From: Candidatus Saccharimonadota bacterium
GTDB lineage: Bacteria > Patescibacteriota > Saccharimonadia > Saccharimonadales > UBA4665
Assembly (NCBI GenBank): GCA_028286245.1
Contig: JAQBRY010000002.1
Span: 142,779 to 206,778 of the forward strand
Reading direction: 5' to 3'
Length of the DNA stretch: 64,000 nt
The notes beneath the pieces were generated by a model. That model ran no database searches. It worked only from the letters and a program-made list of their open reading frames with translations, and was not told the origin of the DNA. Shown piece by piece: positions 8,067 through 54,556 of this stretch. A program made the translations under genes and the position numbers. How positions within the stretch are numbered: the first letter of the stretch is position 1; each line of letters opens with the position of its first letter.

Positions 8067-8108
8067 GTTTTAACAACTATTTTTAACTGTTTAACTTCTT
8101 AAAATAAA

Positions 8109-11307: not shown

Positions 11308-11374
11308 AGCCTATGCTTCCTTAGCTGATAGATAATCGATTTGACCGTTTGGTGTTAGCCTTATCATACCGTAT

Positions 11375-16085: not shown

Positions 16086-16121
16086 AGTTACCCTATTTTA
16101 GCAAAAATTAGGCAGTTTAGC

Positions 16122-17036: not shown

Positions 17037-17071
17037 AGTCTAAGCATAACCTTATTGGTAGTTAGCAGCAA

Positions 17072-18061: not shown

Positions 18062-18166
18062 GTCTGTTTTCCCCTTATGTTTTGCTTAGCACTATAGTAT
18101 CAAATCAGTTACTCTTTGCCAATACAGAAACCTCATAAAACAGCTTCTAAGTGCGTATGTCAAACA

Positions 18167-19228: not shown

Positions 19229-19239
19229 TCATTCGTAGC

Positions 19240-20478: not shown

Positions 20479-20592
20479 TGAATTTCTCCTTGAGTATTTT
20501 TGTTTATTGTTTTTGGTTTTAGATATTTCTGAGGCTATCGTAACACGCTTATGTTAGGGCTGCAAGCAAAACATTAAAAAGTTATCCACAAG

Positions 20593-21330: not shown

Positions 21331-21431
21331 AATACTAGGTATATTTTGCCGTAAAACCAACAAAATGGCAATCCGTTTACGGTTACAAGGTTTTTAAAGT
21401 ATCATAAGACTACTTATAGACGCAGTAAATT

Positions 21432-36552: not shown

Positions 36553-38448
36553 TTATGCAGCAGGTAGTACCAGACTAAATGTTGAACCTTTACCAAGCTC
36601 AGACTTTTCGAGCTGGACAGTTCCATTCATCTGCTCGGTCATGAGCTTAGTAATATACAGCCCGAGCCCCGTGCTCCGGCTATCATCACGAGTAAGGATG
36701 TTGTCTGTGGCCTGCTGAAATTTCTGGAACAGCAGATGCTGATTGTCTACACTCAAACCCTTGCCCGTATCGGTCACTCTAAAGGTGACGGTCTTGCCGG
36801 TATTTTCTGCCGAGACTACTACTGAGCCCTCGTCGGTATATTTGATGGCGTTCCCTATCAAGTTTGTCAGAACTCCCTGGAGACGGCTCTTATCGGCAGT
36901 GACTTTATGAATGTCTTTAGGAATAGCAAGCGAAAGTGCCAGCTTTTTGTCACTTGCCATCAATTCCATATCGCTTACGACGCCCTTGATGACATCGGCC
37001 GTATCAACTGCCGTAAACTCAAAGACCGTCTTCTTTTGCTCGAGCCGCGACGTCGTCAGGAATTGATTAACAATACTTATCAGCCGAATCACCGAGTCGG
37101 TAATATCATCCATCATTTCGCTGGTTTCCTTGTCCTTGAACTTGTCCGCATGGAAAAGGCGGAGGAGCGACAGGTTGCCTCGTATGGCCGTTAGCGGCGT
37201 CCTGAGCTCGTGAGAGGCAATAGAAACAAACTCGTCCTTGCTCCTTTCGAGCATTTTTGATTCTGACATATCTTCGACCAAGAGCACCACACCAAGCGAA
37301 GAATGATCTTTTCTCATTTGAATAGACGAACCAAGGATACGTATATACCTTCCATTTATCATGAGGTTGTCAATTGTAAAAGGGCTACCTGTTGCCAGAC
37401 ATTTTTTTACAGACGCTTTAAGGTTACATGATGCTTTTAATTGGTGGGCAAGTTGGCTAAACAGATCAGCATGACGATTGCCCGCCAGCTCTTCGAAGCC
37501 GCATATCTTTAGGAAGGCCGGGTTGGAGAGGATCGAGCTACCATCACTCAGTGTCATCAAGAAGCCGAGGTCCAAGGTATCAATAGAAGCCTGCAGGCGA
37601 GCCTGCTCTTCGGCCAGCTCGCGGGTTCGCACTTCAATCTTTTTTTCAACATTGGCCTTCTCGTGCTTGAGTTGCTCTTGCAGGTCGTTGCTATCTTCGA
37701 GAATATTGGTGAGTGCAAACCTAGAGTTTTGTAGAAACTTATTGTTTTCCTCAGTGTGCTTAATAGTATCCTGTAATTGGAGTGTTAGCTGCTCCTTGCT
37801 TTTGAGCTCTTCAACAATCTTTTTGTTAGTTGCTGCCAGCAGCAGGCTCTGCTCCCGTACCACTCTTTGCGAGGCCTGCAGCGCGGCATCAAAAATACTA
37901 AGCATTATTCCAGTCAGGATAACTATGAGGCCGCTCTGTGCAAGCATAGAAGGGTCAACACTGAGCTTTATATAACCTAAATGTGCTGCGCCATAAATAG
38001 TAAATGTGGTTATCAGCGTAATAATACTCCAGACAATGCCGCCCAACCGTCCGAGCAAAAAGTGTGCATAGATCAGAACTAGCGGAGCGGCCAGAATGGT
38101 CTGTTGTGCCGAGGGACCGATATAACCTAGAAAAATATTAACACTCATTGCTGCAACATCCACATGGAATATGAGCCGATATTTACCGGTTGAACGCGAA
38201 ACAATTATAAGCGTAATGAATACTACTAATAATAAGGAGTTCCCAAAGATCGAAAGCGTGTCATGCTTAGGGATATGAATGGTAAATAGGGTGACCGCGA
38301 TAGCCAGGACGACTGCAAATAGAATTGCGGTAACAAAACGAAGCTTGCCAATAGTTTCGGGCGTATTATCGGGGTGGCCTTTTTTTACGAGCAGATTCAT
38401 AACAGGACGAATGGCGCGCAGCAGCCGATTTTGCGTCTTTACTTTCAT
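36553..38448 (-). CDS. membrane sensor histidine kinase
   Basis: About 6 N-terminal TM helices, a long coiled coil and a PAS-like segment. H-box SHELRTPL. N-box NLIGNAIKYT. G1 DTGKGL. G2 GLGLYI. Confidence 0.9.
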   Translation of the reverse strand: MKVKTQNRLLRAIRPVMNLLVKKGHPDNTPETIGKLRFVTAILFAVVLAIAVTLFTIHIPKHDTLSIFGNSLLLVVFITLIIVSRSTGKYRLIFHVDVAAMSVNIFLGYIGPSAQQTILAAPLVLIYAHFLLGRLGGIVWSIITLITTFTIYGAAHLGYIKLSVDPSMLAQSGLIVILTGIMLSIFDAALQASQRVVREQSLLLAATNKKIVEELKSKEQLTLQLQDTIKHTEENNKFLQNSRFALTNILEDSNDLQEQLKHEKANVEKKIEVRTRELAEEQARLQASIDTLDLGFLMTLSDGSSILSNPAFLKICGFEELAGNRHADLFSQLAHQLKASCNLKASVKKCLATGSPFTIDNLMINGRYIRILGSSIQMRKDHSSLGVVLLVEDMSESKMLERSKDEFVSIASHELRTPLTAIRGNLSLLRLFHADKFKDKETSEMMDDITDSVIRLISIVNQFLTTSRLEQKKTVFEFTAVDTADVIKGVVSDMELMASDKKLALSLAIPKDIHKVTADKSRLQGVLTNLIGNAIKYTDEGSVVVSAENTGKTVTFRVTDTGKGLSVDNQHLLFQKFQQATDNILTRDDSRSTGLGLYITKLMTEQMNGTVQLEKSELGKGSTFSLVLPAA

Positions 38449-39620
38449 GGTTTGTCTCCTGCTAGTTTTGCTTTTAAATCCTTTATTTCTTGTTTGAGTT
38501 CGATCATGCGGAGTTCACGGTTTACCATCAGTTTGTTTATAGATTCGAGCTCATTGGTGCGTCGCTCTAGCGCCTTACGGGCATCGTCAGTTTGTTTTAC
38601 AGAACTTGAGAGCCAGGCCTTTTGTTGCTGAGCAGTCACCAGTAAGTTTGCTATTCTGCCAAACTCCGTCTGCTGTTTAAGCAGCTGCTTGAGCTGGGTG
38701 ACTCTGCCTGTAAGCAGTGCATCGTAGACACGTCCTAATGGCCGCAGTACCCTGAGGTAGATCAGACCAAATATCAGGATGCAGAGTAGGGCGAATGTTC
38801 CAATCAACACATACATCTGGATATAAACACTCTTAAAGACAGTGCTCTGCGCCGAGTTGTCATACCTAACATAGTACTGGCCTTGTAGCGTACCGTCATA
38901 GGACCGGAGATCCCTGTAGAACGCCACAACGCCCTGCTGGGGCGTAAACTGCGTAGGCAGACTGCCTGGAGTGGCCGTGCTCTCTAGTGTCACCTGGTTA
39001 CGAGTATCGGTGCTGAGCTGCGCAAGGTAATCCTTGTCGATAACTCTCCCCACCATAAAATAGCCATAGGGCGGCCGGCTGTGAGCAGCATCGCTTGGGG
39101 CGTACACCACAACGCCAAATACTTCTATTAATCCGGCGTCCGTCTGTTTGTAAAAATGGGTGTAACTACTTTTTGCAAATATCGCCTGCACGTCCGTTGG
39201 GCTTAAGCTAAGGTCAAGCTGTTTATTACCTTGGGTAAAGTCATTGGCATTGCTGATAAGTTTATAGGCGGTATTATAGGTCCAAATCGCGTCAGCATGA
39301 TTGGACCGTATAGTTGCGTCGAAAAGGTCCTTAATATAGGCGTCCGGTGGTTTTTGTATAAACCGGGCCATATCACCCGCATACATAGGTTCAATGGTTG
39401 CCACCTTTAGCTGCTCGCTTTCAAGCTGACTTATCGTGTCAAAACTGTGCTGGCGCGCAACCGTTCGATCCTCATAGAGTAAGCTGCTACTGCTTTTTGT
39501 TTGGTGCACCATCACCAAGTAGGTAGCAAATAGTACTGCCAAGATAAGCACTGAAGCTGACAGCGTTCTAAAATTTGCCGTCCGCCATAACGGAAGTTTT
39601 TTGTAGGAGGGTTCCTGCAT
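38445..39620 (-). CDS. bitopic membrane sensor-like protein ending in an MVNRELRMIELK coiled coil, no output domain
   Basis: TM helix, a ~240-aa extracytoplasmic domain, a second TM helix, then a cytoplasmic coiled coil ending INKLMVNRELRMIELKQEIKDLKAKL (motif at 38493-38528). ATGA overlap with the kinase gene. Confidence 0.65.
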   Translation of the reverse strand: MQEPSYKKLPLWRTANFRTLSASVLILAVLFATYLVMVHQTKSSSSLLYEDRTVARQHSFDTISQLESEQLKVATIEPMYAGDMARFIQKPPDAYIKDLFDATIRSNHADAIWTYNTAYKLISNANDFTQGNKQLDLSLSPTDVQAIFAKSSYTHFYKQTDAGLIEVFGVVVYAPSDAAHSRPPYGYFMVGRVIDKDYLAQLSTDTRNQVTLESTATPGSLPTQFTPQQGVVAFYRDLRSYDGTLQGQYYVRYDNSAQSTVFKSVYIQMYVLIGTFALLCILIFGLIYLRVLRPLGRVYDALLTGRVTQLKQLLKQQTEFGRIANLLVTAQQQKAWLSSSVKQTDDARKALERRTNELESINKLMVNRELRMIELKQEIKDLKAKLAGDKP

Positions 39621-41227
39621 TATTCGACCTGTCTGACAAGATTCCTGGTTACAAAGTATACTGGCACAATACTCACTATCAGCAGGGCCGCAGTTAAGAT
39701 TCGGGTAAGCTGTACCGACCTCCCTGCTGTTTCGAGCAGGGAACTTTCTGTTTTATCAACAGACAATATGGCTACCGGCACCCCATCCGGATCGAGGATT
39801 GGTACAAATGCGCCGACCAGCTCCTGGTTGGCAAATGCCAAGCTCCCGCTATATACCTTATCTTTATGAAGCACTTGATTAACGATAGTCTTATTTGTGA
39901 GCACGGCGCCTACGGCACTATTTTTACCATCCGCACTGGTGCGAGTGGTTGCCGCCAGAACGTCTCCGGCATACAGCGAACTATCCAGCCCGGTTGCCCG
40001 CTTAATACCGCCAACAAAGGCCGTATCAAGGTTAAGACTGGTCGTGACCGTGCCTAGCAGCGTTCCGTCAACGGCCCGCACCGCCGCTACACTTCGTACC
40101 TGCAGCACCGGAATCGTAATTCCGTGTTCTACGATCACACCAGACTTATCGATACCCAGGAGGGCGCGCTTAACCAGTGGGTCACTGGAAACCGAGTCGC
40201 CCCAGCGGTCTGTATCAATCGCACGCAACAGCACTTGGCCGGCGTCGTCGGTAATCATTAAATCGGATTGTTTTTTAGATACCAGGTAATTTTTAGTGAG
40301 CGCAACGAGCGCTTGATGGTCTTTGTTGGTAACAGCGGCAATAATTTGTGCCGATCCGGCAACTTGCTCGGCGGCGCCGGCCGCCTCAGATTGCTTAGCT
40401 TCAAAAGCATAGCCGAGCACCTGCGTAGAGACCTCGAGGTTTGCCTGCGCATTGTGATGGATATCCCGTAATAACAGAGAGGTAAAGCCAACACTTACTA
40501 TTAAAAATACTGTGCCAATCGCTAGGATAAATATCATGAGTAATTGGCTAAAGAAACGCTTGGTTAAGTACCCCCACACCCAGTTACCGAGTAAGATTGC
40601 CCCGGCTAAAAGCACTACTTGCTGAATAACCCAGATCGGCCCAAATATTCTCACCCAGCTGTAGAGCGTTGGGTTACTGGTATCGTGCAGGCTTGTTAGC
40701 AGCGCTAACGCGTCCGATACGGCAAAGGCGGCAAAGGCATAGGCCACTTTTTTATAGTGTCGTTCCAACCCCTTGGTAGCACGGTTGTAGTACAACCACG
40801 CAATGTATCCACAGACGATGGGTAAGAGCCACTTGGCGCCTAGGCTCAGCGGAGCATACCAGGCTGTAGATTTTTTGGGCACTTCGGTTTCTTGCGGGCC
40901 ATACAGGCCAGTGAGTTTTGGTACTGGTTGGAGAGGGTCTATAAGCTGTGCGGCAACGATAGCCAAAAAGCCTGCGGCGCGGAGTACGGAAGCAGCAGTA
41001 TCGTACGGGCCGCTGAGAAGATCTTGATTAACAATCAGGGCCTGTATCAGGAATGAAACACCGACGCCTGCAAAACCTGCCCACTTTAATAGTTCTTTGG
41101 GAGCTCGTTTGTTCGACCACGCATCAAAATATAACCAGCTAACAGCAAAGAAGACCAGTGCCACAAACATATACAGTGCAAAATGTATATTCTGTTCAAA
41201 AAATTGTAACCACATACCACCACCCAT
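39620..41227 (-). CDS. polytopic membrane protein with Cache-like extracytoplasmic domain, no output domain
   Basis: About 7 N-terminal TM helices, a ~270-aa extracytoplasmic alpha/beta region and a terminal TM helix. TAATG overlap with the downstream gene. Confidence 0.6.
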   Translation of the reverse strand: MGGGMWLQFFEQNIHFALYMFVALVFFAVSWLYFDAWSNKRAPKELLKWAGFAGVGVSFLIQALIVNQDLLSGPYDTAASVLRAAGFLAIVAAQLIDPLQPVPKLTGLYGPQETEVPKKSTAWYAPLSLGAKWLLPIVCGYIAWLYYNRATKGLERHYKKVAYAFAAFAVSDALALLTSLHDTSNPTLYSWVRIFGPIWVIQQVVLLAGAILLGNWVWGYLTKRFFSQLLMIFILAIGTVFLIVSVGFTSLLLRDIHHNAQANLEVSTQVLGYAFEAKQSEAAGAAEQVAGSAQIIAAVTNKDHQALVALTKNYLVSKKQSDLMITDDAGQVLLRAIDTDRWGDSVSSDPLVKRALLGIDKSGVIVEHGITIPVLQVRSVAAVRAVDGTLLGTVTTSLNLDTAFVGGIKRATGLDSSLYAGDVLAATTRTSADGKNSAVGAVLTNKTIVNQVLHKDKVYSGSLAFANQELVGAFVPILDPDGVPVAILSVDKTESSLLETAGRSVQLTRILTAALLIVSIVPVYFVTRNLVRQVE

Positions 41228-41236
41228 ATTTTTTAT

Positions 41237-43516
41237 TTAATTTTCCACATATTTTACAATTTCAGCTTCGGACAACACGCCAACGACTCTCTTAGTAATC
41301 AGCCCGCTTTTATTAACAAAGTAATGTGTCGGGAGATACGAAGCGCCCAGTTTATTCAAGAATTCATTGGTGGTATCGGTGGCAACAGGCACACTATAGC
41401 CAGCAATTGAACTTACCGCAACCAAGTGAGCTAAGCTTTCGCCTGAGCTAACTGGGATTACTTTAAGTTCCGGATAGTGCCGTGCAGTGTCAGCTAGAAT
41501 TGGCATCTGGTCCTGTGATGCCGGTGACCAAGTAGAGACCAGGCTGATAACCGTAGGGTGTCCGAAGGTATCCACCAGGCTTACCATGCCCCCGTTGGTA
41601 AGTTTAAGCGAGAAATTCGGCAGGCGGAGCGGTACAGGATCCGAGGCCCGGTGTGTTCCACTTGCCTTCTGGGCAAGGCTGATCTCGGTGGTGCCAAAGT
41701 GGGGCATAGCAATGTGCGCACCAGCAATAGAAATCTCGTGGGCTGGCTTCATGGGTATATCGCTGCTCACGGGGCCGGGCGTGCGCAGGGTAAAGCTCTG
41801 CGTCACTGCCTTTTGATAACCGGGTTTTTCAGCCTTTAGATAGTACGTGCCAGCCGGTAGGTATAAGCTGTACCCGCTATTAGTAGTCGAGGTGAGCGGG
41901 TTGGATTGCCCGTAGGCATCGGCTGCCCAGGCTTGCCAATTGAGCGTGGCTGGATCGCGGGCATAAACAGAAATTTTTGCAGCCACCGATTTGCCACTAC
42001 TCGTGTCGATAGTTTTGCCCTTATTGTTAACGTAGATTGTGCCAATTGCCCGCTTAGTCTGGTTGCCAGCTCCGTCGAACGCCTTAACACTGAGCTGATA
42101 AATGCCGCCATCAGTAAAGCTGAGAGCGCCTGTCCATAAGCCGGTAGAAGGCGACCTCGCTAGGACAAATGAGTGAACGGTTGTACCGACTGCCTGTTTA
42201 GCAGAAGCTTCGATAGTAATATTGAGCGGGCCGCCAACAGCGCTTAAAACAATTCGTTCATCCACACCGGCTAGAGCGTGCATAGTACCGTCTAAATCGG
42301 GTCGGATAATCTGTGAGCCAATACTAACAGTGCTGCCGCCGACCGTTGGTGGCAGCCGGTCGATTACAATTTCGCCCAGTACTTTTACCGCCTGGTTGCG
42401 TGAGGTATCAGAGACACGAACAAGGAGTTGGTAGTTACCGTCGTCAAGGTTCTTTGGTGTAAAACTAAAGCTAACAGCCTTGGTGCCGAGCCCGGTTGTT
42501 TTGTCGGCCAGCAGCCAGTCCTGTCCGGCATCGGTTGAGTATTCAACCAGCGCCACGCCGGTATTATCGGTAGCGGTACCGGCGATGGTGGGAGCATCTT
42601 TATATACCTTAGAAAGCGTCGTGGTTGCCCCGATCACCGGTGGAACAGTCTCGGTAGGCTTAGCCTGAAAAAAGACGCTATGAGCGGTTTTAGGCTCAAC
42701 GGTCGTAGACGATGAGTTAGAGGTGCCTGTTGATACATTATTTTGTATTGTAATGATTGTAGGTGCCAGCGGTGCCTCAGGCGTTACAAAGGTATTATCA
42801 TCAGAAAAATAATTATTGCCGTTCTCGTCCGAGCCGGCAACTTTATAATGGTATACCGTATTGGGTGTGAGCCCCGACAGTACCACGCTGTGGCCACTAT
42901 CAGTACCGGCTACCGTCACCGTTCGGCCGTAACTGGCATCAGTACCGTAGTACACATAGCTGGTGCTGGGAGCCACGCTCGTCCAACTAATAGTTGCCGT
43001 GGTGGCACTCAAGTGCGTCAGACCGACGTTTGATTCACCATTAGGTGAAGGCGGTGCCTGGGGATTAGCAATCGTGGTTGTAATCTGTCCTCCGCAAGAA
43101 ACGCTACCGCTGCCATCACCGGTTGAGGAGGTACTAATTCCCCAATCGGCAGCCGGTTCTTCGCTGGGCCCGGTTTGCATGGCCAGTTGCAATGAATAGG
43201 TATTGCCCGGTGCCAGGCTTGAACCGGTCAGCGTGGTACCCGTTTCGCTGGTAGCATCAACCCAATTATCCTGCGATATACCGTTAACACTGTAGTTGAC
43301 ATCGGGCTGGTTAATTTGTATCCAGTTAATTGCCTGTGAGCCAGTGTTCTGAATATCAAACTGCAGAACCACTTCGGTGCCTGGTGGGACGTTATCGGGG
43401 GACACCACAGCATTACAGCCAGTTGCGGCTAAGGCGGCATGCGGAAACACACTTATTATAAGCACCGCTGTAATAACATACGGCCCACACCGACGTAGCC
43501 ATGTAATCATTAGCAT
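41237..43516 (-). CDS. large secreted multidomain protein: FN3/Ig-like/carboxypeptidase-regulatory-like domains plus a Cys-less TlpA/thioredoxin-like C-terminal domain
   Basis: Signal peptide from the ATG at 43516. FN3-like ISWTSVAPSTSYVYYGTDASYGRTV...LTPNTVYHYKV. YSLYLPAGTYYLKAEKPGYQ. The C-terminal FSLKLTNGGMVSLVDTFGHPTVISLVSTWSPASQDQMPIL carries WSPAS (41516-41530) in place of WCxxC. Confidence 0.7.
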   Translation of the reverse strand: MLMITWLRRCGPYVITAVLIISVFPHAALAATGCNAVVSPDNVPPGTEVVLQFDIQNTGSQAINWIQINQPDVNYSVNGISQDNWVDATSETGTTLTGSSLAPGNTYSLQLAMQTGPSEEPAADWGISTSSTGDGSGSVSCGGQITTTIANPQAPPSPNGESNVGLTHLSATTATISWTSVAPSTSYVYYGTDASYGRTVTVAGTDSGHSVVLSGLTPNTVYHYKVAGSDENGNNYFSDDNTFVTPEAPLAPTIITIQNNVSTGTSNSSSTTVEPKTAHSVFFQAKPTETVPPVIGATTTLSKVYKDAPTIAGTATDNTGVALVEYSTDAGQDWLLADKTTGLGTKAVSFSFTPKNLDDGNYQLLVRVSDTSRNQAVKVLGEIVIDRLPPTVGGSTVSIGSQIIRPDLDGTMHALAGVDERIVLSAVGGPLNITIEASAKQAVGTTVHSFVLARSPSTGLWTGALSFTDGGIYQLSVKAFDGAGNQTKRAIGTIYVNNKGKTIDTSSGKSVAAKISVYARDPATLNWQAWAADAYGQSNPLTSTTNSGYSLYLPAGTYYLKAEKPGYQKAVTQSFTLRTPGPVSSDIPMKPAHEISIAGAHIAMPHFGTTEISLAQKASGTHRASDPVPLRLPNFSLKLTNGGMVSLVDTFGHPTVISLVSTWSPASQDQMPILADTARHYPELKVIPVSSGESLAHLVAVSSIAGYSVPVATDTTNEFLNKLGASYLPTHYFVNKSGLITKRVVGVLSEAEIVKYVEN

Positions 43517-43605
43517 AATGTTACCTTGAAAACAGGAGTGAAACAAGCATGTGAAACGGCACGTAACAGATTAACTAATGATTGTGTGATCTGCTTCACT
43601 AAAGT

Positions 43606-44055
43606 TTACTGATTACCTTCCAGCGGGGTTATTTCCACAGGGCCCACATCAACGATTTTATCAATACTTGGCCGGTAAATAATAACCCGGCTATTCTTCT
43701 GATATATCAATAATTTATCACCGGTTTGGGTCTTTTTTAAGAATTTTGTCGTAATTTTTGAAGGGTCGGTAATAGTCGCCAAAGCGGGATCTTCATCAGT
43801 CGGTAAGAGGTAGTGTTTACTGACAAGGTTGATGACCGTGTGTACATCATTCATGTTACCGGCTTTTTTATGCGTCAGTGTTACAACAGTGATTACAGTG
43901 ATAGCCAGCACGGCAATGACCGCCACAGTAAGGCCCAGCCGGCGATTAAACCGATGTTGTGGCTTAGGCTTTTGCGGTACCATGTTTGGCCTTGGGCTAG
44001 AGCCTTTAATATCCATACTGCGTGGTGCAGGCCGAGTACTAGGGAGCTGACTCAT
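43606..44055 (-). CDS. small bitopic membrane protein, 149 aa
   Basis: Basic N-terminus, one TM helix (LTVAVIAVLAITVITVVTL) and a ~85-aa external domain. ATGA overlap with the upstream fibre-like gene. Confidence 0.55.
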   Translation of the reverse strand: MSQLPSTRPAPRSMDIKGSSPRPNMVPQKPKPQHRFNRRLGLTVAVIAVLAITVITVVTLTHKKAGNMNDVHTVINLVSKHYLLPTDEDPALATITDPSKITTKFLKKTQTGDKLLIYQKNSRVIIYRPSIDKIVDVGPVEITPLEGNQ

Positions 44056-46316
44056 CGGTCAGACTCAACATACATGCGCTGGAACGAAAAGCTTCTGGCA
44101 GCGGCGCTAATTGGGGCAATAATTACCATGGGCTTCATGGCGACGGTAGCAGTAGGCAGGTTAGTAGTTTTAGAACCAGTGAGCGAAACAGTGCCGTCCG
44201 TGAGATTATCAATGCGGTAATACACCGTTGTGTCACGGGGTTTCATGTAAATATAAAAATCGTAAGTTTTGCTTGAGGCAAGCGTCAAGGTAGTGCTTGC
44301 CACTGTCTGGGTAGTACCGTCACGGGTTGTAAACTGCATAACGCCCCCATCGCGCGATGGAGCAAACTGGAAGCCGGCAAAGTTACCCGTTGGCGTGTTT
44401 GATGCGCCCATAACCGCCATTGTTTGGTCGGTCATTCCAAAGTACAGGCGGGCGCCTGTTGTGGTACTGGTGTAGTTCGCCAGCGTTGCATCAGACAGGT
44501 TAACGCGAGCAAAGTAAAAGAAGCCGTCAGCACCATTGGCCACAGAACCGCGGAAGTACTGGTTGTTTGCGCCGGCGAAACCAGCGGGCGTACCGGCAGT
44601 TGCGGCGCTGGTGTAGCTAGCCATGCCACCGGCCGCTTCGGTCCCGGCAATACTAGTACTAAGCGTACCGGTAGTGGTAGTTTGGCCGCCGGTAACGTTC
44701 AGAGTGGCTGCTGCCGTGCCGCCGGGCGTCACCAGCATGACATTTTGCTGGAAAAGACTTGGCTGAAAGGCATAACTCACTCCACTGCTGCTTAGTTGGC
44801 TTAGCATGGAACGTCCTGATACTACGCGGCTGTACACACGTAAGTTGCCTGCTGCTGGAGTTGTCGGATCGGTAGACATATCGGCCATCTGGATACCACC
44901 GGATTGCAAATCGAGACCTATATCCCAGCCGGTCGCAACTTCAACAGCTACCTCATTGCCCGCTCCCTGAGATGTGGGTCCTTCTAGCTTAATTCCGTAG
45001 CTATTCACACCGGCAACAGCGCCGGTTGCACCGGCGACAATCCGCATACCGCTCCAGGTACCACCGCTGGTTGTGCCAGGAGCATAATCAATCCGTACAC
45101 CGGCTGATTCTACGGCGGCAGCGCCACCCTTGTAGTTAACATTCAAAGCATTAACACCCGCCGTTGTAACACCGGATGAACTGTTATTTGCAATAGTTAC
45201 CTGGTCGGCAGTTGGGACATTGGTACCAGAGTTAATAGCGAGGCCACCAGGCGCAGAGGTAACCACGCCAAATTTACCGAGCGTGAGGGCATTGGCCGTT
45301 CCGGTTCCCAGGCTTAGGGTTGCTGCCGATGAGGTATCAACGAGTGGGGTAAGCACACTAGTTGACGCCGAGGAAGACCCGGTAACACTAGTGCCACCAG
45401 CCGTAACGATAAAGTAGCTTGTACCGCCGCCATTATTGGCCACCGAGAAAAGACTCCCCACCGTGCTGGCAGCGTCTTGAATTTCAAAGCCACCATTAGC
45501 AGCCGACAGAAGAATCTGTGGGCTAGTGACACCCGAACCGTTATAACTGGTCTGGAGCGTACTACAGGTACCAAATACCAGCAAACTCGCGGTGCTGGCG
45601 CCGGCTTGCAAACACTGATTTATGGTAGGGGCAGCTGTTGGCAAGGTTAGACTATAGCTGGCAGCCAGCGCTGCCACATTGAGCGTAACTGTACGGTTGT
45701 TGACGGTGCCATCCTGGAATAAAATAGCTCCCACATTTGTAGTGGAGCCCAGCGTGACTGCATTAGCGCCCTGCACCGCCAGCGTGCTGCCTGTAGTAAT
45801 TGAGCCGCTGACGTTAATGGTACCGGTCTGCTGGCTTCCTGGGGTGAGCTGCACCAGCTGCGCAGCGGTCAAGCCACCGACTTTTTCGGAGTTAAAGGCG
45901 TAGGGGCTGGCAGTAAATCGTACACGCGGCGTCATTTCTGCATCGGTAGTAACTTTTATACCCAAATAGAGCGCGCTGCTATTAAAATCTACGCTGCCGG
46001 GAAGTGCCGTAGTGTCGCCCAGTGCCGTCTGAAATATACCATCCGTGATGGTAACCGATTTGGTTTCTTCCCACTTACAGGTGTTAGCAGCACAGGTGTT
46101 TGTGGCGTCAGCCGTAGGGTCAGTATAGAGGCGGAAACGAATACTATAGCTGTTATTAGCGATGTTAGTGCCGTCGGGGTTCGTGATCTTGCCCTGGAAG
46201 CTGATTTGGGGGTTGATAGTAGCGCTGGCTTTGGCCGGTAAAACGTTGCTAAAAAAGACGAAAGTGAGTGCAAATAGCACCAAGCTTAAGAAACTTTTTT
46301 GCACCCCGTGTTTCAT
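44052..46316 (-). CDS. large secreted fibre-like protein, 754 aa
   Basis: Signal peptide. N-terminal module ISFQGKITNPDGTNIANNSYSIRFRLYTD...KWEETKSVTITDGIFQTALGD...LYLGIKV...SPYAFNSEKVGGLTAAQLVQL. Long Gly/Thr/Ser/Ala-rich beta region. C-terminal jelly-roll-like domain. Confidence 0.65.
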   Translation of the reverse strand: MKHGVQKSFLSLVLFALTFVFFSNVLPAKASATINPQISFQGKITNPDGTNIANNSYSIRFRLYTDPTADATNTCAANTCKWEETKSVTITDGIFQTALGDTTALPGSVDFNSSALYLGIKVTTDAEMTPRVRFTASPYAFNSEKVGGLTAAQLVQLTPGSQQTGTINVSGSITTGSTLAVQGANAVTLGSTTNVGAILFQDGTVNNRTVTLNVAALAASYSLTLPTAAPTINQCLQAGASTASLLVFGTCSTLQTSYNGSGVTSPQILLSAANGGFEIQDAASTVGSLFSVANNGGGTSYFIVTAGGTSVTGSSSASTSVLTPLVDTSSAATLSLGTGTANALTLGKFGVVTSAPGGLAINSGTNVPTADQVTIANNSSSGVTTAGVNALNVNYKGGAAAVESAGVRIDYAPGTTSGGTWSGMRIVAGATGAVAGVNSYGIKLEGPTSQGAGNEVAVEVATGWDIGLDLQSGGIQMADMSTDPTTPAAGNLRVYSRVVSGRSMLSQLSSSGVSYAFQPSLFQQNVMLVTPGGTAAATLNVTGGQTTTTGTLSTSIAGTEAAGGMASYTSAATAGTPAGFAGANNQYFRGSVANGADGFFYFARVNLSDATLANYTSTTTGARLYFGMTDQTMAVMGASNTPTGNFAGFQFAPSRDGGVMQFTTRDGTTQTVASTTLTLASSKTYDFYIYMKPRDTTVYYRIDNLTDGTVSLTGSKTTNLPTATVAMKPMVIIAPISAAARSFSFQRMYVESDR

Positions 46317-46407
46317 TTGATCTAAGTATACGTAATTTACGCATAATACTCAAGCTTATTCACGGTGTAATTACAGATTAGACAGTAGGGGATAGAATGT
46401 TTGTGAC

Positions 46408-47559
46408 TTACTTCACTTGCTGCCGCTTAGAGTCCGCCCGTACCGGCACCACATGGGCTGCTTGGTCTGCAGAATTTGTGCCGCTCACAGCTATCTTTTT
46501 AGCAGCCTTAGGAGTTCCCGAAATAGGGTTTTGCGATTGTACTTTTGTGGGTACCTTAGCTGCCTTTTTTATTGCTATTTTTGGTGCCTTTTGCAGGTGT
46601 ATTTTTATAATTCGGCGTCGTTTTGGATGCATGAGCCAGACTACAAAACACACAACAATCAAGGCAGCCAACAGGCCTATTTTTGGAACATACCAAAAAT
46701 ATACAGTCGTCGACTGAACCGTGTCCTGACCGTCATAACGATAAACAACGTGCAGTGAATATCTTCCTGGTAAAATTGGCTGTTTGTATTCGGTCAAATC
46801 GGTTTGCAATTTAATTTTTTCGGCAGGAAAAAGTGGAATAGACTGATTATTTATAACGCCCTGTGCATAGATGGTGCCTGCCTTTTTATTGTCAATGGTA
46901 ATAACACCGCGCGGTACGGAATAAACATTCCCGGGATTTGAAAATGTAACGTTTACGGCTTTGGGCAAGCTCAATAAACTTCGCCTTGGGCTGACGCTAG
47001 TTACTAACAAATTACGGACTGCGCCATCTTCTTTAATAACATATATCGTTGCACTAATAGCTGGTTCCAAGGACAGTTGGCCGGCGCTGCTTGCCGTGGT
47101 ACCGGTCTGCGTTAGTAACAATGATACGTAATGTCCGCCCGGCGAGAGACTGGCTGAGTTTTTTATGGTAACTGCCACATTTATTGAACGGCCGGCCGGG
47201 ATCGTAAATGCAGCCGGTGTAATAACGGTATTGGCAACCAAGGCAGCATCGGCTTTGGTAGACGGGGTGAGGCTGTTATTTTGGACGCTGAGTCCACTTA
47301 AAGCAGCGGTCATAGTAATAGACGCCGCGTAGTTATTACGAACGCCGACCGAAAAACTGGTTTGTGGCTGCAACGCACCAACCTGAGCCACTGAATAGGC
47401 CGGAGCCACGGTAATATTGCCGGCAATCTGAGCAGCCTGCGCTCCAGATACCGAGTGAGACTGCACTACTGCCACCAGGAGCACTGCTATTAAACCGAAC
47501 GCCCAGCCAGACTGAGCATAACCCCGTAGCCTTTTACTCACTACGCTTGCGGCGCCCAT
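46408..47559 (-). CDS. DUF916/DUF3324-like surface protein with C-terminal TM anchor and Lys-rich tail
   Basis: Signal peptide. FTIPAGRSINVAVTIKNSASLSPGGHYVSLLL, then VTFSNPGNVYSVPRGVITIDN...PGRYSLHVVYRYDG. TM helix, then a ~70-aa Lys-rich cytoplasmic tail. Confidence 0.55.
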   Translation of the reverse strand: MGAASVVSKRLRGYAQSGWAFGLIAVLLVAVVQSHSVSGAQAAQIAGNITVAPAYSVAQVGALQPQTSFSVGVRNNYAASITMTAALSGLSVQNNSLTPSTKADAALVANTVITPAAFTIPAGRSINVAVTIKNSASLSPGGHYVSLLLTQTGTTASSAGQLSLEPAISATIYVIKEDGAVRNLLVTSVSPRRSLLSLPKAVNVTFSNPGNVYSVPRGVITIDNKKAGTIYAQGVINNQSIPLFPAEKIKLQTDLTEYKQPILPGRYSLHVVYRYDGQDTVQSTTVYFWYVPKIGLLAALIVVCFVVWLMHPKRRRIIKIHLQKAPKIAIKKAAKVPTKVQSQNPISGTPKAAKKIAVSGTNSADQAAHVVPVRADSKRQQVK

Positions 47560-48586
47560 GTCGTGAATGCTTCCCTAAGCGGAAAAAGAATTTAATAGTG
47601 GCAACAATTCCTATCAACAGTATTATTAACGCCACCAGCAGACCAAGTACAATCTTCCAGGGGAATACCCAAAAGCTAATTTCTGTTTCCAGCGGCACAT
47701 CACGTTGCCCGTTATTGTAAATGACCACAACGCGTGCCACATACCGCCCGATTCTAAACTGTGAGTCACGCCAGTGCCATTCCAGGTGTTGCTTTGGGGC
47801 GGCATTTGCTACGTCTTGCGTAGAAACACGCACGGGCACGCCATCTGCCCAGCTGAGCGGATATTCTCGTGTTATACCGGGTAACAAATACAGCGAGCCG
47901 GGATTTACCGGTAATATGGTGAGCGGCTTATTACTATTTGATTTACGCTGGATATAGACATTGCCGGCTGGCAATAAGAGCGAGTTGCCGTTGTTACGAA
48001 GTTTGAGTGTAAAGGTGGCCGGTAAGTACTCGTATACTTTGTGTGCGGACGTCAGGCTGGTAATTTGCAGTGACTTTTTAGCACCTGGCCGATCAACATT
48101 CAGTAGTGTAAACGAAGCCACCGAGCCTTGAATTGCAGTTTGCCCCTTGACTATCTTGGGAGCGGTTTGCCGACTGATTACCATCGCAAAGGAGTAACTA
48201 AAACCGGCCGATGCTGGCGTATCCACATTTATAAGTTGCGTGGTACGCTCACCCGGTTTTATAGAAAAGGTTGGGTGCACAAAGCTTACCCAGCCGGCAA
48301 CCTCAGAGGGCTTACTCGGCTCAAGCGTCACCTTACCAGTGTCGCTGGCTACCTTAAAGCTTTGCACCTCTATCTTTAGGTTTTCCTGGGTAGTACCGCC
48401 GTTATACACCTTAAGTTCAAGGGTTTTATGTTCGCCCGGTTTTACCGTTTCGACTATGGGAGAGGGGCTAATTTCTAATGATATGCCTGGATCAGACGGC
48501 GTAGCGGCTTGAGCCAGTGGAATCATTAGCAGGTTTGCGGCTAGGATTCCCAGGCTAATAAGTGGAAGGAATTTTTTTGTAAGCAT
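47534..48586 (-). CDS. DUF916/DUF3324-like surface protein with C-terminal TM anchor
   Basis: The ATG at 48586 follows TGGTATACT. Signal peptide. ISLEISPSPIVETVKPGEHKTLELKVYNGG, then FTLKLRNNGNSLLLPAGNVYIQ. TM helix plus a basic tail. Confidence 0.6.
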   Translation of the reverse strand: MLTKKFLPLISLGILAANLLMIPLAQAATPSDPGISLEISPSPIVETVKPGEHKTLELKVYNGGTTQENLKIEVQSFKVASDTGKVTLEPSKPSEVAGWVSFVHPTFSIKPGERTTQLINVDTPASAGFSYSFAMVISRQTAPKIVKGQTAIQGSVASFTLLNVDRPGAKKSLQITSLTSAHKVYEYLPATFTLKLRNNGNSLLLPAGNVYIQRKSNSNKPLTILPVNPGSLYLLPGITREYPLSWADGVPVRVSTQDVANAAPKQHLEWHWRDSQFRIGRYVARVVVIYNNGQRDVPLETEISFWVFPWKIVLGLLVALIILLIGIVATIKFFFRLGKHSRHGRRKRSE

Positions 48587-48649
48587 CTTGTATTCGTAGT
48601 ATACCAGGCCCATAACTGTTACCAGCGGAGGACTTATGCCAACAAGCGG

Positions 48650-49681
48650 CTAGAAGGAGGCAGCGCCAACAACGGTAATAGTGTCCGTGTAGTCGGTGGC
48701 AGCTGGTGTTGCACCGGCGACAGCGGCGTTGGTAGTAAGCGACAAGACGTGGCCGGTAGCTGTTCCGTTAGCCGAAGCCATAGAGGCAAATGAGGTGTTA
48801 AGCCCACCGCCCTTGCCGGCTGAGCCGCCAACGAATGGTGCCGTAACGGTGATAACCCCAGTTCCACCACCGTTTGCCGATGTGACACCGGTGTTGTAGC
48901 CTTCGGTACCGGCTGAAAGCGTGCTGTTTGTGCCCGGAGTGGTAGAAGCGATTGTCTTGGTAGCGCTGGCGGAGAGCAAGCCAGTATTGACATCACGGGC
49001 CCAGAGGTTCCAGCCGCTGGCAGCGTTGGTGTTTATGGTTACCGTACGTGGTGTTGGGCTTGATGAGACTGCACCGCTGGCAAGTGCGCCAAGGTTATCT
49101 GTGTTGCCGCTAAGTGCAAAGCTGAATGCCTGCGGCACTGATGCGGTGACTACAATCTGGTCATCGGCAATACTAGCCGTGCTAAAAGGAGAAGAATCTA
49201 GCAGAGTTGGACCGGCTATATATGTTTCAACGGTACCGGTATTGTTGGCAGTAGCACTTGCTTTAACAGTTACAGCCACTGGGTTCACCCAGTTAAAGCA
49301 GTAGAGTACTCCTACGGTAAGGTCACCACTTGGAAAGGTTACAACCTGACCGGTAACATTAGTAGCGGTAGCAATACCGGGCCAGGCGGTACCACCGGTA
49401 GGCCAGGCGGTGTTAGTAGTGCCGACGGTAAAGGTCGAAGCGATTCCAAGCGTATAACCGGTTGGGAAAGTAACTAGAGTAGTTGCTTCCGTACCCGCGC
49501 TAGAAGGCTTAGCACAAACGGTGCCAGTGGTGGTGGTACTGATCTTCATACGATCAAAACGAACAGAAACTTGAGACAAAGAGGCAGCATTTGCTACGCT
49601 CGCGAGCACAACAGGAGCAATTATAGCGATGCCAAACACGGCCACCAGTGACCTTGCAATTAGTTTGCGATTGATTGGCAT
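48650..49681 (-). CDS. secreted beta-rich WxL-like surface protein, 343 aa
   Basis: CAGGAG RBS and a signal peptide. FSFALSGNTDNLGAL...TVTINTNAASGWNLWARD retains a literal W-x-L. Ends in YTDTITVVGAASF. Confidence 0.6.
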   Translation of the reverse strand: MPINRKLIARSLVAVFGIAIIAPVVLASVANAASLSQVSVRFDRMKISTTTTGTVCAKPSSAGTEATTLVTFPTGYTLGIASTFTVGTTNTAWPTGGTAWPGIATATNVTGQVVTFPSGDLTVGVLYCFNWVNPVAVTVKASATANNTGTVETYIAGPTLLDSSPFSTASIADDQIVVTASVPQAFSFALSGNTDNLGALASGAVSSSPTPRTVTINTNAASGWNLWARDVNTGLLSASATKTIASTTPGTNSTLSAGTEGYNTGVTSANGGGTGVITVTAPFVGGSAGKGGGLNTSFASMASANGTATGHVLSLTTNAAVAGATPAATDYTDTITVVGAASF

Positions 49682-49763
49682 TGTATGCTCCTGAAGAATG
49701 ATTCTTTTATTGTTTATATTGTGAACTAATGACAGTATGCATAACCATTATTAATTATGCAAA

Positions 49764-50819
49764 TCAAAATGACATGGCAGTGATAATAGTCACCTTATCG
49801 GAATAGTCAGTAGAGGCGGGTGTGATAGAAGTTGTCTTAGCCATAAAGGTAATTTGACCGCTGCCCGTAGTAACAGGGCCGGTCGTTCCAAATAATTGCT
49901 GCAGGCTGGTGCTCAGCGCTCCAACGTTATTAGCGGAGCCGTTATAAGGGCTGCTAGCGGTCAGAGGACCGCCGCTAGCCTGCGAAAGGCTGGTTATCTG
50001 ACCCCCGTAGCCGCTGGCGGCGGCAGTAAGGTCAGCAGTAGCAGAGCTTATAGTACTATTTTTGGCGGTACTAAATAATCCGTTACTGGTGTCTTTTATA
50101 TAGACCCCTCCGCCAAAAACGGCATTAGTACTAACGCTCACCAGCGCTCCAGCATTTGCCGAGAAGACGCTGTTTGGCGCTAAACTAGTAAAACCCACTG
50201 TAAAGGGCGGCGTTGCATTAGCGGTAGTTGCAACGGCAAAACTAACCGACGGTGCTGCCGTTGCTACCCCTGTTGAAACTGGACCAAAAGCCGAACCCGT
50301 AAAACCGCCCTGCAGGGCACTTACTTTTACGGTGTAGGTGGTGCTCGGCAAAAGACCCAGCACATCAATACCGGTAGAACTCCCCCACAAAGCATAGGTC
50401 TGATAATCCTCTATCCCGAGTACTGCCCCGACGCTATTGTCATTTTGAATATACTTAGTGGTCGCAAATCCGTCGGAACTAATAGCGATTGCAAATTTTG
50501 TATCGGTTGGATTACTACCATTATTAATAACTAGGTGCAGCTTATTATAGGTGTTAGCCGGGTTACTTAAGGTGGCTGCCGGCGGCACGTTCGCGGTCTG
50601 GCTCGACTGCTCACCAGGTTTCAAAATTGTTATACCGTTGGTTGCCGAGGCACCCGTCTGCGAACCGGACGTCCCGTTTAAGGCGTACGAGCTGCTTGAG
50701 CTGCTGCCACCGCCAGTACCAAAATCGTAATTCCTGAGCGTAAAGTTGGTACTTGCCGGTGATGCTGCAAATAGACTGATAAGCCCTGTGGCACTAAAAG
50801 CCATGAAGGTTTTAAACAT
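49764..50819 (-). CDS. secreted beta-rich WxL-like surface protein, about 351 aa
   Basis: Signal peptide from the ATG at 50819 (MFKTFMAFSATGLISLFAASPAST). Ends in YSDKVTIITAMSF. Confidence 0.6.
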   Translation of the reverse strand: MFKTFMAFSATGLISLFAASPASTNFTLRNYDFGTGGGSSSSSSYALNGTSGSQTGASATNGITILKPGEQSSQTANVPPAATLSNPANTYNKLHLVINNGSNPTDTKFAIAISSDGFATTKYIQNDNSVGAVLGIEDYQTYALWGSSTGIDVLGLLPSTTYTVKVSALQGGFTGSAFGPVSTGVATAAPSVSFAVATTANATPPFTVGFTSLAPNSVFSANAGALVSVSTNAVFGGGVYIKDTSNGLFSTAKNSTISSATADLTAAASGYGGQITSLSQASGGPLTASSPYNGSANNVGALSTSLQQLFGTTGPVTTGSGQITFMAKTTSITPASTDYSDKVTIITAMSF

Positions 50820-50924
50820 ATACACTAATACTACCATTTTCACGAGGATTCGAGGCGCAGCTTTATTGATGCCCCAGAGCAGTGCACACTGCTATACTGG
50901 TGAAAAGATAATTGGGAGAAGGTA

Positions 50925-53380: not shown

Positions 53381-53449
53381 CTCTAAATTGTACGCTACCG
53401 AGCATAATTTTTTACTGTCGTCTACATTAAAAGCCGCTATTATTTGGCA

Positions 53450-54556
53450 ATGCCCGCTACTGCAACTCCTACCAGTCAGACCCTGAGCGACCTTTATGCT
53501 GATCCCCTCAGCTGCGCAAAATCCATTGGCCTAGCATACATAGAATCCCCCACCAGCGGTGTCACCAGACAGCGCCGTGGCAAGGGTTTTCATTACGAAC
53601 ACATTGGCAGCAGCAAAGCAGTCGATGCCAAAACCAGGCAACGCATCGAAGCGCTGGTTATACCGCCGGCTTGGCAGGACGTTTGGATCCACCCAACCGG
53701 CAACGGCCACATCCTTGCTACTGGCGTCGATGAAAAAGGCCGTAAACAATATATCTACCACCCAAAATGGCGAGCCATGCGCGACGGCATTAAGTTTTAC
53801 CGAATGATTATGTTTGCTGGCGGTCTGCCTAAAATTCGCCGCGATATCAAAAAGAATTTACAGCTTAAAAAATTAAGCCAAGGCAAGGTCATGGCCATCA
53901 TGCTCTGGATACTGGACAGCGCTTACATTCGTATCGGCAACGACAGCTACTTTCAAGCTAACGAATCAGTCGGCCTCACCACGCTCACCGACCGAAATAT
54001 TGTTATTGCCGGGCCAGTGGTGACGCTTGCCTTTAAAGGCAAGTCCGGGAAAGACCAGCAAATCACCTTCGAAAATGCCGGCATCGCTAAGGTGCTCAAC
54101 CAACTGCGCCAGGTTAAAGGTGCCCGCCTGTTCCGGTATCAGGACGCTGCTAACGACTGGCATGAGATTGATTCGGACGAAATTAATAAATATCTCCACG
54201 AACTCACTGGCCTGCAGATCTCAGCCAAAGACTTTCGGACCTGGGGCGGCACGCTAATGGCCTTTATGCACTTGCTGAGCGAACGGGCTGCAGAGGAGGA
54301 CAAAAAATCAGAAAAGGTGATCATAGAAGCGGTCGACCAAGCCGCGGCCGTGCTAGGTAACACCCGCAGCGTCGCCCGCTCGTCGTATGTCCACCCTCAC
54401 ATGCTCGATATCTACGGTTCCAAGGACTTCGAAAAGTACTATGCCCGCAGCGTCAAAGCGCGCAAAGTCGCCGGCCTGGACAGAAACGAATCCGAGCTCC
54501 TCCACTTCCTGGAACAACTCTTCGAGCAGGAGTTCAGGACTATCAAAACCAACTAA
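53450..54556 (+). CDS. DNA topoisomerase IB
   Basis: KGFHYEH...IEALVIPPAWQDVWI, AKDFRTWGGT, and the C-terminal RSSYVHP with the catalytic Tyr. TATTAT (53438-53443) lies 6 nt upstream of the ATG at 53450. The track's TTG at 53444 is less likely. Confidence 0.85.
   Translation: MPATATPTSQTLSDLYADPLSCAKSIGLAYIESPTSGVTRQRRGKGFHYEHIGSSKAVDAKTRQRIEALVIPPAWQDVWIHPTGNGHILATGVDEKGRKQYIYHPKWRAMRDGIKFYRMIMFAGGLPKIRRDIKKNLQLKKLSQGKVMAIMLWILDSAYIRIGNDSYFQANESVGLTTLTDRNIVIAGPVVTLAFKGKSGKDQQITFENAGIAKVLNQLRQVKGARLFRYQDAANDWHEIDSDEINKYLHELTGLQISAKDFRTWGGTLMAFMHLLSERAAEEDKKSEKVIIEAVDQAAAVLGNTRSVARSSYVHPHMLDIYGSKDFEKYYARSVKARKVAGLDRNESELLHFLEQLFEQEFRTIKTN

Follow-up and report, generated by a model that had tools for sequence, protein, structure and literature searches.

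A WxL gene cluster is defined by one or more WxLIPs and two or more WxL proteins encoded within four genes (PMC10599100). The WxLIP itself combines a PGBD (DUF916, PF06030), an HBD (DUF3324, PF11797) and a transmembrane (TM) helix, and the sequence NQIDKxxxYFDLK is conserved near the N-terminus of the PGBD (PMC10599100). The present analysis concerns a locus of a Candidatus Saccharimonadota bacterium that can be compared with this system, namely cluster 2, located at positions 44052-50843 of contig stretch JAQBRY010000002.1:142,779-206,778 (assembly GCA_028286245.1, forward strand). This whole stretch of 64,000 nucleotides is hereafter called the window, and it also carries a second such locus, cluster 1, at 16122-21363. 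Cluster 2 is a real operon conserved across Saccharibacteria and, on balance, it probably encodes a non-covalent surface complex that presents a glycan-binding fibre in a monoderm member of the Saccharibacteria and is a distant relative of the WxL/Csc complexes of Lactobacillales.

Two other described systems are relevant. In Bdellovibrio bacteriovorus, all 21 mosaic adhesive trimer (MAT) fibres, characterized by an intertwined trimeric stalk of the beta-prism or beta-helix type, have the same conserved beta-rich N-terminal domain of about 130 aa directly after the signal peptide, and this domain is thought to bind a still unidentified element of the predator surface and to present exchangeable adhesive tips (PMC10769870). 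Within the Saccharibacteria, the DUF916-like protein SEML1_0626 and the small partner SEML1_0627 of Southlakia epibionticum are encoded next to a large surface protein; the best Foldseek match of SEML1_0627 is annotated as a WxL domain-containing protein (score 0.85), and in the ECOD mapping the DUF916 protein is assigned to the Caf1M chaperone (e4b0mM4) and the small partner to CsuE (e6fjyB1) (PMC10633639, Table S2). In the literature searched as full text, no paper combining Saccharibacteria, Patescibacteria or the candidate phyla radiation (CPR) with WxL or DUF916 was found, the only trace being the automated annotation in this supplementary table.

Gene content, conservation and modularity of cluster 2

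An initial annotation of the window had listed two secreted beta-rich proteins, two DUF916/DUF3324-like proteins with a C-terminal TM anchor and a fibre-like protein of 754 aa. Five co-directional open reading frames do follow each other head to tail on the minus strand, and the length of about 351 aa proposed for one of the secreted proteins corresponds to the probable start of c2_359a, the ATG at 50819. Together with a sixth, smaller gene and the segments discussed below, they are as follows.

49764..50843, minus strand: c2_359a, secreted protein and first gene of the cluster; 359 aa from a GTG, 351 aa from the ATG at 50819
48650..49681, minus strand: c2_343, secreted protein of 343 aa with two beta-sandwich domains and two invariant Cys
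48992..49033, minus strand: the NTNAASGWNLWARD stretch, residues 217-230 of c2_343, taken for a WxL motif by the initial annotation
47534..48613, minus strand: c2_359b, WxLIP (DUF916)-like protein of 359 aa, in which a signal peptide and two beta domains are followed by a TM helix and a short basic tail
46408..47559, minus strand: c2_383, second WxLIP-like protein, 383 aa, with a TM helix and a Lys-rich cytoplasmic tail of 69 aa
44052..46316, minus strand: c2_754, MAT-like fibre adhesin of 754 aa with a signal peptide, a conserved N-terminal domain, a variable stalk and a lectin-like tip
45897..46229, minus strand: beta-rich, MAT-like N-domain of the fibre (c2_754 residues ~30-140), which immediately follows the signal peptide
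44055..44876, minus strand: jelly-roll domain at the C-terminus of the fibre (c2_754 residues ~481-754), ConA-like (SO2946-like), the putative glycan/receptor-binding tip
43606..44055, minus strand: c2_149, small type-II-like membrane protein whose start overlaps the stop codon of the fibre gene (ATGA)

The genes are closely packed, with intergenic spacings, in the direction of transcription and including c2_149, of 82, 36, -26, 91 and -4 nt, the 26-nt overlap being that between c2_359b and c2_383. A hydrophobicity scan finds a signal-like N-terminal segment in all five main products and a single TM segment (residues 36-64) in c2_149. The latter has no family match in the profile libraries scanned, PHROGs included; a homologue directly follows the fibre gene in 14 of 30 fibre-bearing loci, and c2_149 is probably a member of the cluster. 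Both c2_343 and c2_754 are 100% identical to proteins of a Candidatus Saccharibacteria metagenome-assembled genome (JWM81_430 and JWM81_427, respectively). The GC content of cluster 2 (0.505) is close to that of cluster 1 (0.502) and of the whole window (0.496) and gives no signal of horizontal transfer, and scans for promoters and terminators in the cluster were uninformative. A prophage origin was also considered and rejected, since the PHROGs gave zero matches.

The genes of cluster 2 are real, as each has many homologues and their order is conserved in other genomes. Sampling one genome per species, 101 relatives of c2_343 were found, and the best 80 of these define a set of 79 loci. Saccharibacteria or Patescibacteria is the label of nearly every one, and the gene order is conserved among them. 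In the 58 loci with enough flanking sequence, c2_359a, c2_343, a c2_359b-like gene, a c2_383-like gene and a fibre gene are found all together in 25, and 30 have only c2_343 with one to three c2_359b-like genes; in two more, all four partner genes of c2_343 are missing, and one is mixed. The c2_359b gene follows c2_343 almost everywhere (56/58). By contrast, c2_359a, c2_383 and the fibre are jointly present (25/58) or jointly absent (32/58), with one exception, and the MAT N-domain is missing from the large proteins that are encoded downstream in core-only loci. Cluster 2 consequently divides into a core module, c2_343 with a WxLIP-like protein, and an accessory module, c2_359a with a second WxLIP-like protein and the fibre, often accompanied by c2_149. 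Such co-occurrence suggests specific pairings among the products, short of proof.

Several loci depart from this scheme. In locus L025 the cluster is present twice within 14 kb, once on each strand (15202-21000, minus, and 7420-12145, plus), the second copy being diverged, with a c2_343-like protein at 39% identity and a c2_359a-like protein of 782 aa. Tandem duplicates of c2_343 are found in L042 and L063, and three WxLIP-like genes in a row in L068. Records labelled Nevskiaceae, Pristimantibacillus and Polaromonas (L006, L027, P0234 and P0393) carry Saccharibacteria-specific genes at 62-73% identity, and are probably mis-binned or mislabelled contigs.

The anchored proteins c2_359b and c2_383

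In the hydrophobicity scan, both anchored proteins have one hydrophobic segment near each end (residues 13-37 and 311-348 in c2_359b, 13-40 and 285-314 in c2_383), the second being followed by a basic tail, namely RLGKHSRHGRRKRSE in c2_359b and 69 aa with 12 Lys and 4 Arg in c2_383. They thereby exhibit the signal peptide, single C-terminal TM helix and basic tail of a WxLIP, and two TM-anchored proteins, one with a Lys-rich tail of about 70 aa, had been read correctly in the initial annotation.

Regarding the first domain, the Pfam model WxLIP_PGBD remains under its cutoff with either protein alone (c2_359b, E = 0.21; c2_383, no match). Their paralogue in cluster 1, c1_329, is above the curated cutoff (30.6 vs. 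27.3 bits) and matches both in BLASTP (2.5e-9 with c2_359b and 2e-9 with c2_383), and the families of c2_359b and c2_383 are full-length paralogues of each other (hhalign 99.7%, E = 1.9e-26). When the three families are merged in one profile and compared with 177,635 PDB sequences, the best match is EfmWxLIP1 (9i25_C, 9i1y_A; E = 2.4e-4), over the PGBD. Genuine WxL clusters were fetched from plasmids of Lactobacillales and Bacillales with a fragment of EfmWxLIP1. Full-length hhalign comparisons with their WxLIPs reach 95-97.5% (96.2% for c2_383) and span 285-308 columns. After removal of signal peptides and TM helices, the ectodomains, compared with 13 true WxLIPs, still reach 94.1% (c1_329), 94.5% (c2_359b, E = 8e-8, over the PGBD) and 51.7% (c2_383, E = 1.5e-4, against 0.3% for the reversed control), with at most 0.7% for reversed sequences and at most 0.2% for unrelated families. 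Against the PGBD alone the values are 95.5% for c2_359b (E = 1.5e-8) and 68% for c2_383 (E = 4.8e-5), the reversed controls of this comparison having been run with the reversed full WxLIP ectodomain and not with the PGBD alone. By way of c1_329, the merged profile and hhalign, an N-terminal PGBD can be recognized in the anchored proteins of cluster 2.

A second beta-rich domain of fitting size and position follows, with 198 columns aligned after realignment of the ectodomains, and the Pfam HBD model (PF11797) has no match in it. The DUF916 half of the earlier assignment is borne out by the Pfam match of c1_329, BLASTP, EfmWxLIP1 and hhalign; the DUF3324 half is not detectable alone. Judged by these profile comparisons, c2_359b and c2_383 share homology of the first domain with the WxLIP (DUF916) proteins of Firmicutes and agree with them in overall architecture. 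The solved E. faecium EfmWxLIP1 structures in the PDB constitute a reference for such WxLIP-like proteins.

The secreted proteins c2_343 and c2_359a

At least 1737 homologues of c2_343 can be found, the best 120 of which are 60-87% identical to it. The alignment has a mean column identity of 68%, with C56, C128, W93, W100, W131, W227 and F343 invariant. The AlphaFold2 model (pLDDT 87) consists of two beta-sandwich domains (residues 33-170 and 185-343), for which Foldseek returns from the PDB only generic tandem Ig-like matches of the adhesin and pilin type, i.e., integrin legs, ClfA/SdrG, cohesin dyads, CfaE and PapG. At the sequence level, the profiles of c2_343, of c1_353 and of the fibre had zero matches among PDB sequences. 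A C-terminal domain of about 160 aa is common to c2_343 and c2_359a (BLASTP 6e-13; domain-level hhalign 99.4%).

The initial annotation had read these proteins as WxL-like, one of them with a literal W-x-L. This triplet (WNL, in NTNAASGWNLWARD) is present in c2_343, but it is limited to this genome: the family consensus is GWxVW, or, over the stretch, NGWxVWAKD, where W224 is kept in at least 90% of members, W227 is invariant and position 226 is mostly V. The place of the second WxL motif reads DYTDTITVVGA in the c2_343 family, and c2_359a has no Trp at either place, so that the two W-x-L motifs about 70-106 residues apart that characterize a WxL domain are found in neither protein. The two corresponding strands are about 110 residues apart, a spacing similar to that of the WxL motifs. 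With Pfam WxL (PF13731), zero matches were obtained in the proteins of the window at E up to 1, and zero in 241 relatives (70 of c2_343, 107 of c1_353 and 64 of c1_256) at E up to 0.1-0.5; the small proteins of about 237 aa in core-only loci were likewise negative, and no solved WxL chain was found in the PDB search. In hhalign comparisons with 10 and then 18 genuine WxL domains, run in local, global and domain-trimmed modes with reversed controls, the c2_343 and c2_359a families do not exceed 0.5%, and the c1_353 family reaches 1-15% with only its last strand (GxYxTT[LI]T[YW]) aligned. Membership of the WxL domain family is not supported by these Pfam, hhalign and motif tests. As in WxL proteins, the domain common to c2_343, c2_359a and c1_353 occupies the extreme C-terminus of a secreted protein, reaching the last residue, and the genes adjoin WxLIP-like genes. 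On the profile evidence, the secreted proteins are regarded as a family of their own, common to both clusters and not detectably WxL.

The fold and conservation of c2_343 call for two other explanations to be weighed against an adaptor of the WxL/Csc kind. One is a chaperone-assisted pilus or fibril of the donor-strand type, in which c2_343 would form the shaft, the WxLIP-like proteins, because of their two Ig-like domains, would act as membrane-tethered chaperones like PapD or Caf1M, c2_359a would be the adaptor and c2_754 the tip fibre. Extreme conservation is seen in major pilins and shaft subunits; in c2_343, moreover, the first strand, which begins just behind the signal peptidase site, is conserved, and the C-terminal strand, with Phe at its end, is invariant. 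Its Foldseek matches include CfaE and PapG, the ECOD mapping of the Southlakia homologues to the Caf1M chaperone and CsuE goes in the same direction, and AlphaFold2 predicts insertion of a DUF916 strand into WxL (PMC10599100). Weak Fimbrial_CS1 matches occur in 9 of 70 c2_343 members, but they are under the cutoff and lie partly within the signal peptide; the Foldseek TM-scores are low, and a donor-strand pilin would be expected to be smaller than two domains with about 310 mature residues. The cluster contains neither an usher-like component nor a polymerase, nothing points to polymerisation or to an Ig fold that is incomplete, and a pilus of this type is considered unlikely.

The other is an envelope or S-layer-like lattice of c2_343 with c2_359b as its membrane anchor, beside which the fibre genes would be merely co-located. 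The occurrence of this pair without a fibre in 30 of the 58 loci, the unusual conservation of c2_343 with its invariant Cys and Trp, and its wide distribution in Saccharibacteria are in line with a lattice. S-layer proteins are, however, usually poorly conserved, and profile searches found no S-layer-homology or known lattice domain; moreover, the all-or-none presence of c2_359a, c2_383 and the fibre flanking the core pair favors one functional unit. A lattice is therefore held to be quite improbable.

The fibre c2_754

Residues 30-106 of c2_754 match the NCBIfam model Bdello_MAT_N (E = 3.3e-7; 30 bits, for a subfamily cutoff of 60), and the same model is matched by 62 of 66 members of the fibre family, at best with 1e-13. 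In the AlphaFold2 monomer model, the N-domain (residues 35-135, pLDDT ~85-94) and a C-terminal beta-sandwich (residues ~480-754, pLDDT ~90) are separated by a stalk that has no regular secondary structure over residues 255-478. Structurally, the tip resembles legume lectins and SO2946 (2a5z, TM-score 0.63) in the PDB, with E ~1e-7 and TM-scores of 0.5-0.64, and tailed-phage proteins in BFVD, with E down to 2e-24, a root-mean-square deviation of 2.4-3.1 Å over ~290-300 columns and 23-27% identity. The BFVD matches include proteins named "Major tropism determinant N-terminal domain-containing" and "SO2946-like C-terminal domain-containing". At the sequence level, neither PHROGs nor Pfam matched the tip.

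Among 30 syntenic orthologues, the lengths of which range from 345 to 1937 aa, the N-domain is kept in 28, the stalk in 10 and the C-domain tip in 15. A conserved N-terminal domain after the signal peptide and an exchangeable C-terminal tip are both features of MAT fibres, and given the N-domain match, the lectin-like tip and the variable stalk and tip of the orthologues, c2_754 is MAT-like and mosaic. The initial annotation was right in calling it fibre-like. Its further idea of variable or host-specific surface structures holds for the stalk and tip of the fibre, not for the whole cluster, c2_343 being among the most conserved proteins.

A tip with a ConA-like lectin/glucanase fold could also belong to a complex for the capture of extracellular polysaccharides and nutrient acquisition, rather than for attachment to a host, as first proposed for the Csc clusters of Lactobacillus plantarum (Siezen et al., 2006, as cited in PMC10599100). 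Glycosidase-like domains, weakly matched, do occur inside some related loci (L071, L015). No catalytic domain was found in cluster 2 of the window by profile searches, though, and in structure the tip is closest to phage receptor-binding proteins, the N-domain being that of a prey-recognition fibre family; a nutritional role is accordingly deemed very improbable. Concerning the two loci, large proteins with a Vgb-like beta-propeller and glycosidase-like regions are encoded in or beside the cluster in some core-only loci (L071:11170-13563; L015:14197-15771), with weak NCBIfam matches to glucuronidase/arabinofuranosidase and arabinosidase models.

Paralogy of clusters 1 and 2

Cluster 1 is encoded on the minus strand and comprises c1_256, c1_412, c1_353, c1_329 and c1_304, next to a divergent gene at 21432-22418. 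The closest correspondence between secreted proteins is that of c2_343 with c1_353, the profile of the latter covering 106 of the 795 representative clusters found. The two profiles align with hhalign values of 93.3% (E = 2.6e-7) and 95.5% (E = 1.5e-8), against 0.4% for the reversed control, and the Viterbi alignment is colinear over 335 columns. This homology is spread over the full length: either half alone is marginal (C-terminal halves, 51%, E = 1.5e-4, vs. 0.2% for the control), and tight trimming to the C-domain erases the signal. In cluster 1, c1_353 is linked to c1_412 (3.9e-32) and to c1_256 (3.6e-29); a direct profile link of c2_343 with c1_256 is not significant, and the two are connected only transitively via c1_353. 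The N-terminal region of c2_359a ("SxN[FY]...FGxGGG...SxxY") is weakly related to the c1_256 family (50.6%, E = 1.6e-4; reversed, 0.1%).

With corresponding parts lists, the claim of the initial annotation that cluster 2 is a paralogue of cluster 1 withstands profile-profile comparison, and cluster 2 is, as far as such profiles tell, paralogous to cluster 1. In the comparison of both clusters by blastn, no match is longer than about 21 nt, so the statement that long nucleotide identity is lacking was correct. Each set of paralogues has its own widely conserved orthologues, by which the duplication is judged to be old, as had also been supposed.

Not all parts of cluster 1 have a counterpart. 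The MAT N-domain was not found in the 328-aa product of the divergent gene (c1_328p), and the "fibres" of the two clusters are hence not homologous. A c1_304-like Ig/PKD membrane protein, usually encoded just upstream of the cluster in other genomes, is absent from cluster 2 here. A metagenome scan for c1_353 loci returned two short loci only.

Further observations were made on the genes of cluster 1 and their relatives. The first gene of each cluster (20593-21363 and 49764-50843, both minus strand) encodes the motif S-x-N-[YF]-x-[VL]-x-x-x-x-F-G-[ST]-G-G ... S-x-x-Y ... G-[EQ]. The c1_256 protein is 63-75% identical across Saccharibacteria, its family has two invariant Cys, and no Pfam family covers it. 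The product of the divergent neighbour (21432-22418, plus strand), whose N-terminus is cytoplasmic, contains a single TM helix and a beta region rich in repeats; bactofilin, H-type-lectin and PHROG models match it weakly.

Neighbouring genes

Directly downstream of cluster 2, an exported protein of 769 aa (41237-43546, minus strand) has CARDB-like, fn3, Big_3 and CarboxypepD_reg-like domains and, at its C-terminus, a thioredoxin-like domain of the AhpC/TSA or ResA type. Oxidation or isomerisation of the invariant Cys pairs in the secreted products of the cluster might be its function; only three related loci have a homologue behind the cluster. Farther on (36553-41227, minus strand) three sensory membrane proteins are encoded, with a Cache domain (535 aa), with a CHASE4 domain (391 aa) and with the PAS-HisKA-HATPase architecture of a histidine kinase (631 aa), near which no response regulator was seen. 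On the other side lies a gene for a bacterial type IB topoisomerase (53444-54556, plus strand; Topoisom_I and Top1B_N_bact, E = 4e-31), an enzyme that is sporadic in bacteria.

Comparison with described systems

Compared with the WxL gene clusters as defined above, cluster 2 contains WxLIP-like genes, two in tandem, with an HBD not detected alone; the two or more WxL-domain proteins are lacking, its two secreted partners being unrecognizable as such. The gene order is parallel, true WxL clusters running from a small anchored protein through a small secreted protein and a WxLIP to a large adhesin. Common to cluster 2 and the WxL/Csc clusters of Lactobacillales are a monoderm organism, a membrane-anchored protein of two beta domains, homologous in the first (PGBD/DUF916) domain, and neighbours that are beta-rich proteins with a signal peptide and a common domain at the extreme C-terminus, in a varying number of paralogous partners, plus a large adhesin. 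The differences are that the partners lack the two W-x-L motifs, that the WxLIP paralogues are two in tandem and without the NQIDKxxxYFDLK sequence, that no LPXTG protein is present, whereas those clusters have a small one beside their small and large WxL proteins, and that the lineage is that of Saccharibacteria and not of Bacilli. Polarity differs as well: large WxL proteins are anchored by a C-terminal WxL domain, whereas in the fibre the N-terminus is conserved and the C-terminus variable.

With the MAT fibres of B. bacteriovorus (PMC10769870), c2_754 shares a beta-rich N-domain after the signal peptide, a long stalk that is poorly modelled as a monomer, exchangeable C-terminal tips, some of them phage-like or lectin-like, and a life on other bacteria. 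Unlike them, it scores below the NCBIfam cutoff and has no S74 protease domain, its envelope is monoderm, its gene stands in an operon with WxLIP-like proteins and secreted partners, and it is known from sequence and models. Phage tail-fibre and receptor-binding proteins with an SO2946-like ConA-fold C-domain share the fold of the tip; they differ in giving no PHROG or Pfam sequence match and in context, which for cluster 2 is a conserved cellular operon and not a prophage.

The locus SEML1_0625-0628 of S. epibionticum belongs to the same phylum and has an Ig-like anchored, a DUF916-like, a small secreted and a large surface protein, the likeness being one of annotation. It differs in being a minimal single cluster, nearer to cluster 1, the large protein of which has RCC1 and fn3 repeats and is not a MAT-like fibre. 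The SEML1_0626/0627 pair beside a large surface protein is independent support for a surface complex.

Proposed arrangement of the complex

In the WxL/Csc-like surface complex favored here, c2_359b and c2_383 would be held in the membrane by their C-terminal helix and project their two Ig-like domains through the wall. Each WxLIP-like protein would hold one secreted beta-sandwich partner, c2_359b holding c2_343 in the core and c2_383 holding c2_359a in the accessory module. The accessory module may then dock the conserved N-terminal domain of the fibre, which presumably trimerises, and the interchangeable stalk with its lectin-like, phage-tail-fibre-like tip would bind a surface glycan, of which the host bacterium is the most plausible carrier. 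Cluster 2 is thus a candidate for a host-attachment apparatus of these parasitic ultrasmall bacteria.

Several points weigh against this arrangement. The HBD/DUF3324 domain alone gives hhalign values of 1.8-4% (E = 0.01-0.03), against 0.1-0.5% for reversed controls. The fetched true WxLIPs carry sequences of the NQIDKxxxYFDLK type, e.g., ENQIDKEKTYFDLK; in the same place, the families from Saccharibacteria read FSLQVTPSPLV (A2 consensus) or GITVSPA (A3 consensus). By Pfam and hhalign the secreted proteins have no significant sequence similarity to WxL domains, the whole-chain TM-scores of the generic Foldseek matches of c2_343 do not exceed 0.28, and the very high conservation of c2_343 is no less in keeping with a structural lattice or polymer than with an adaptor. 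The stalk of the fibre is poorly modelled as a monomer (residues 140-360 mostly with pLDDT <60, much of it <50). Lastly, the Southlakia counterparts are non-essential in transposon sequencing (Tn-seq) of the co-culture (PMC10633639).

A more far-reaching proposal is that the accessory module (c2_359a and c2_383) is the docking platform for MAT-type N-domains, that the fibre, by swapping tips, determines to which host bacterium the cell attaches, and that epibiotic CPR bacteria and Bdellovibrio have this recognition apparatus in common by descent or transfer. It is speculative and thought rather unlikely to hold in full. If true, the accessory module would be the kind of surface element that is still unidentified in Bdellovibrio.

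Implications

The analysis extends surface complexes based on WxLIP/DUF916 proteins far outside the Firmicutes, the partners being proteins that escape the present WxL models, and it defines large families without Pfam coverage, namely those of c2_343 (at least 1737 relatives), c1_353 (795 representative clusters) and c1_256 (1814 relatives). For the first time, the MAT fibre N-domain is placed in a definite genomic neighbourhood, and the search for its anchor in Bdellovibrio may profit from this. How Saccharibacteria and other Patescibacteria recognize and hold their hosts is largely unknown beyond type IV pili. The operon provides a concrete and widely conserved candidate for this function, consisting of a fibre with a conserved, putative docking domain and interchangeable lectin-like tips, together with dedicated anchors and partners, and it gives a specific hypothesis for the variation of host range.

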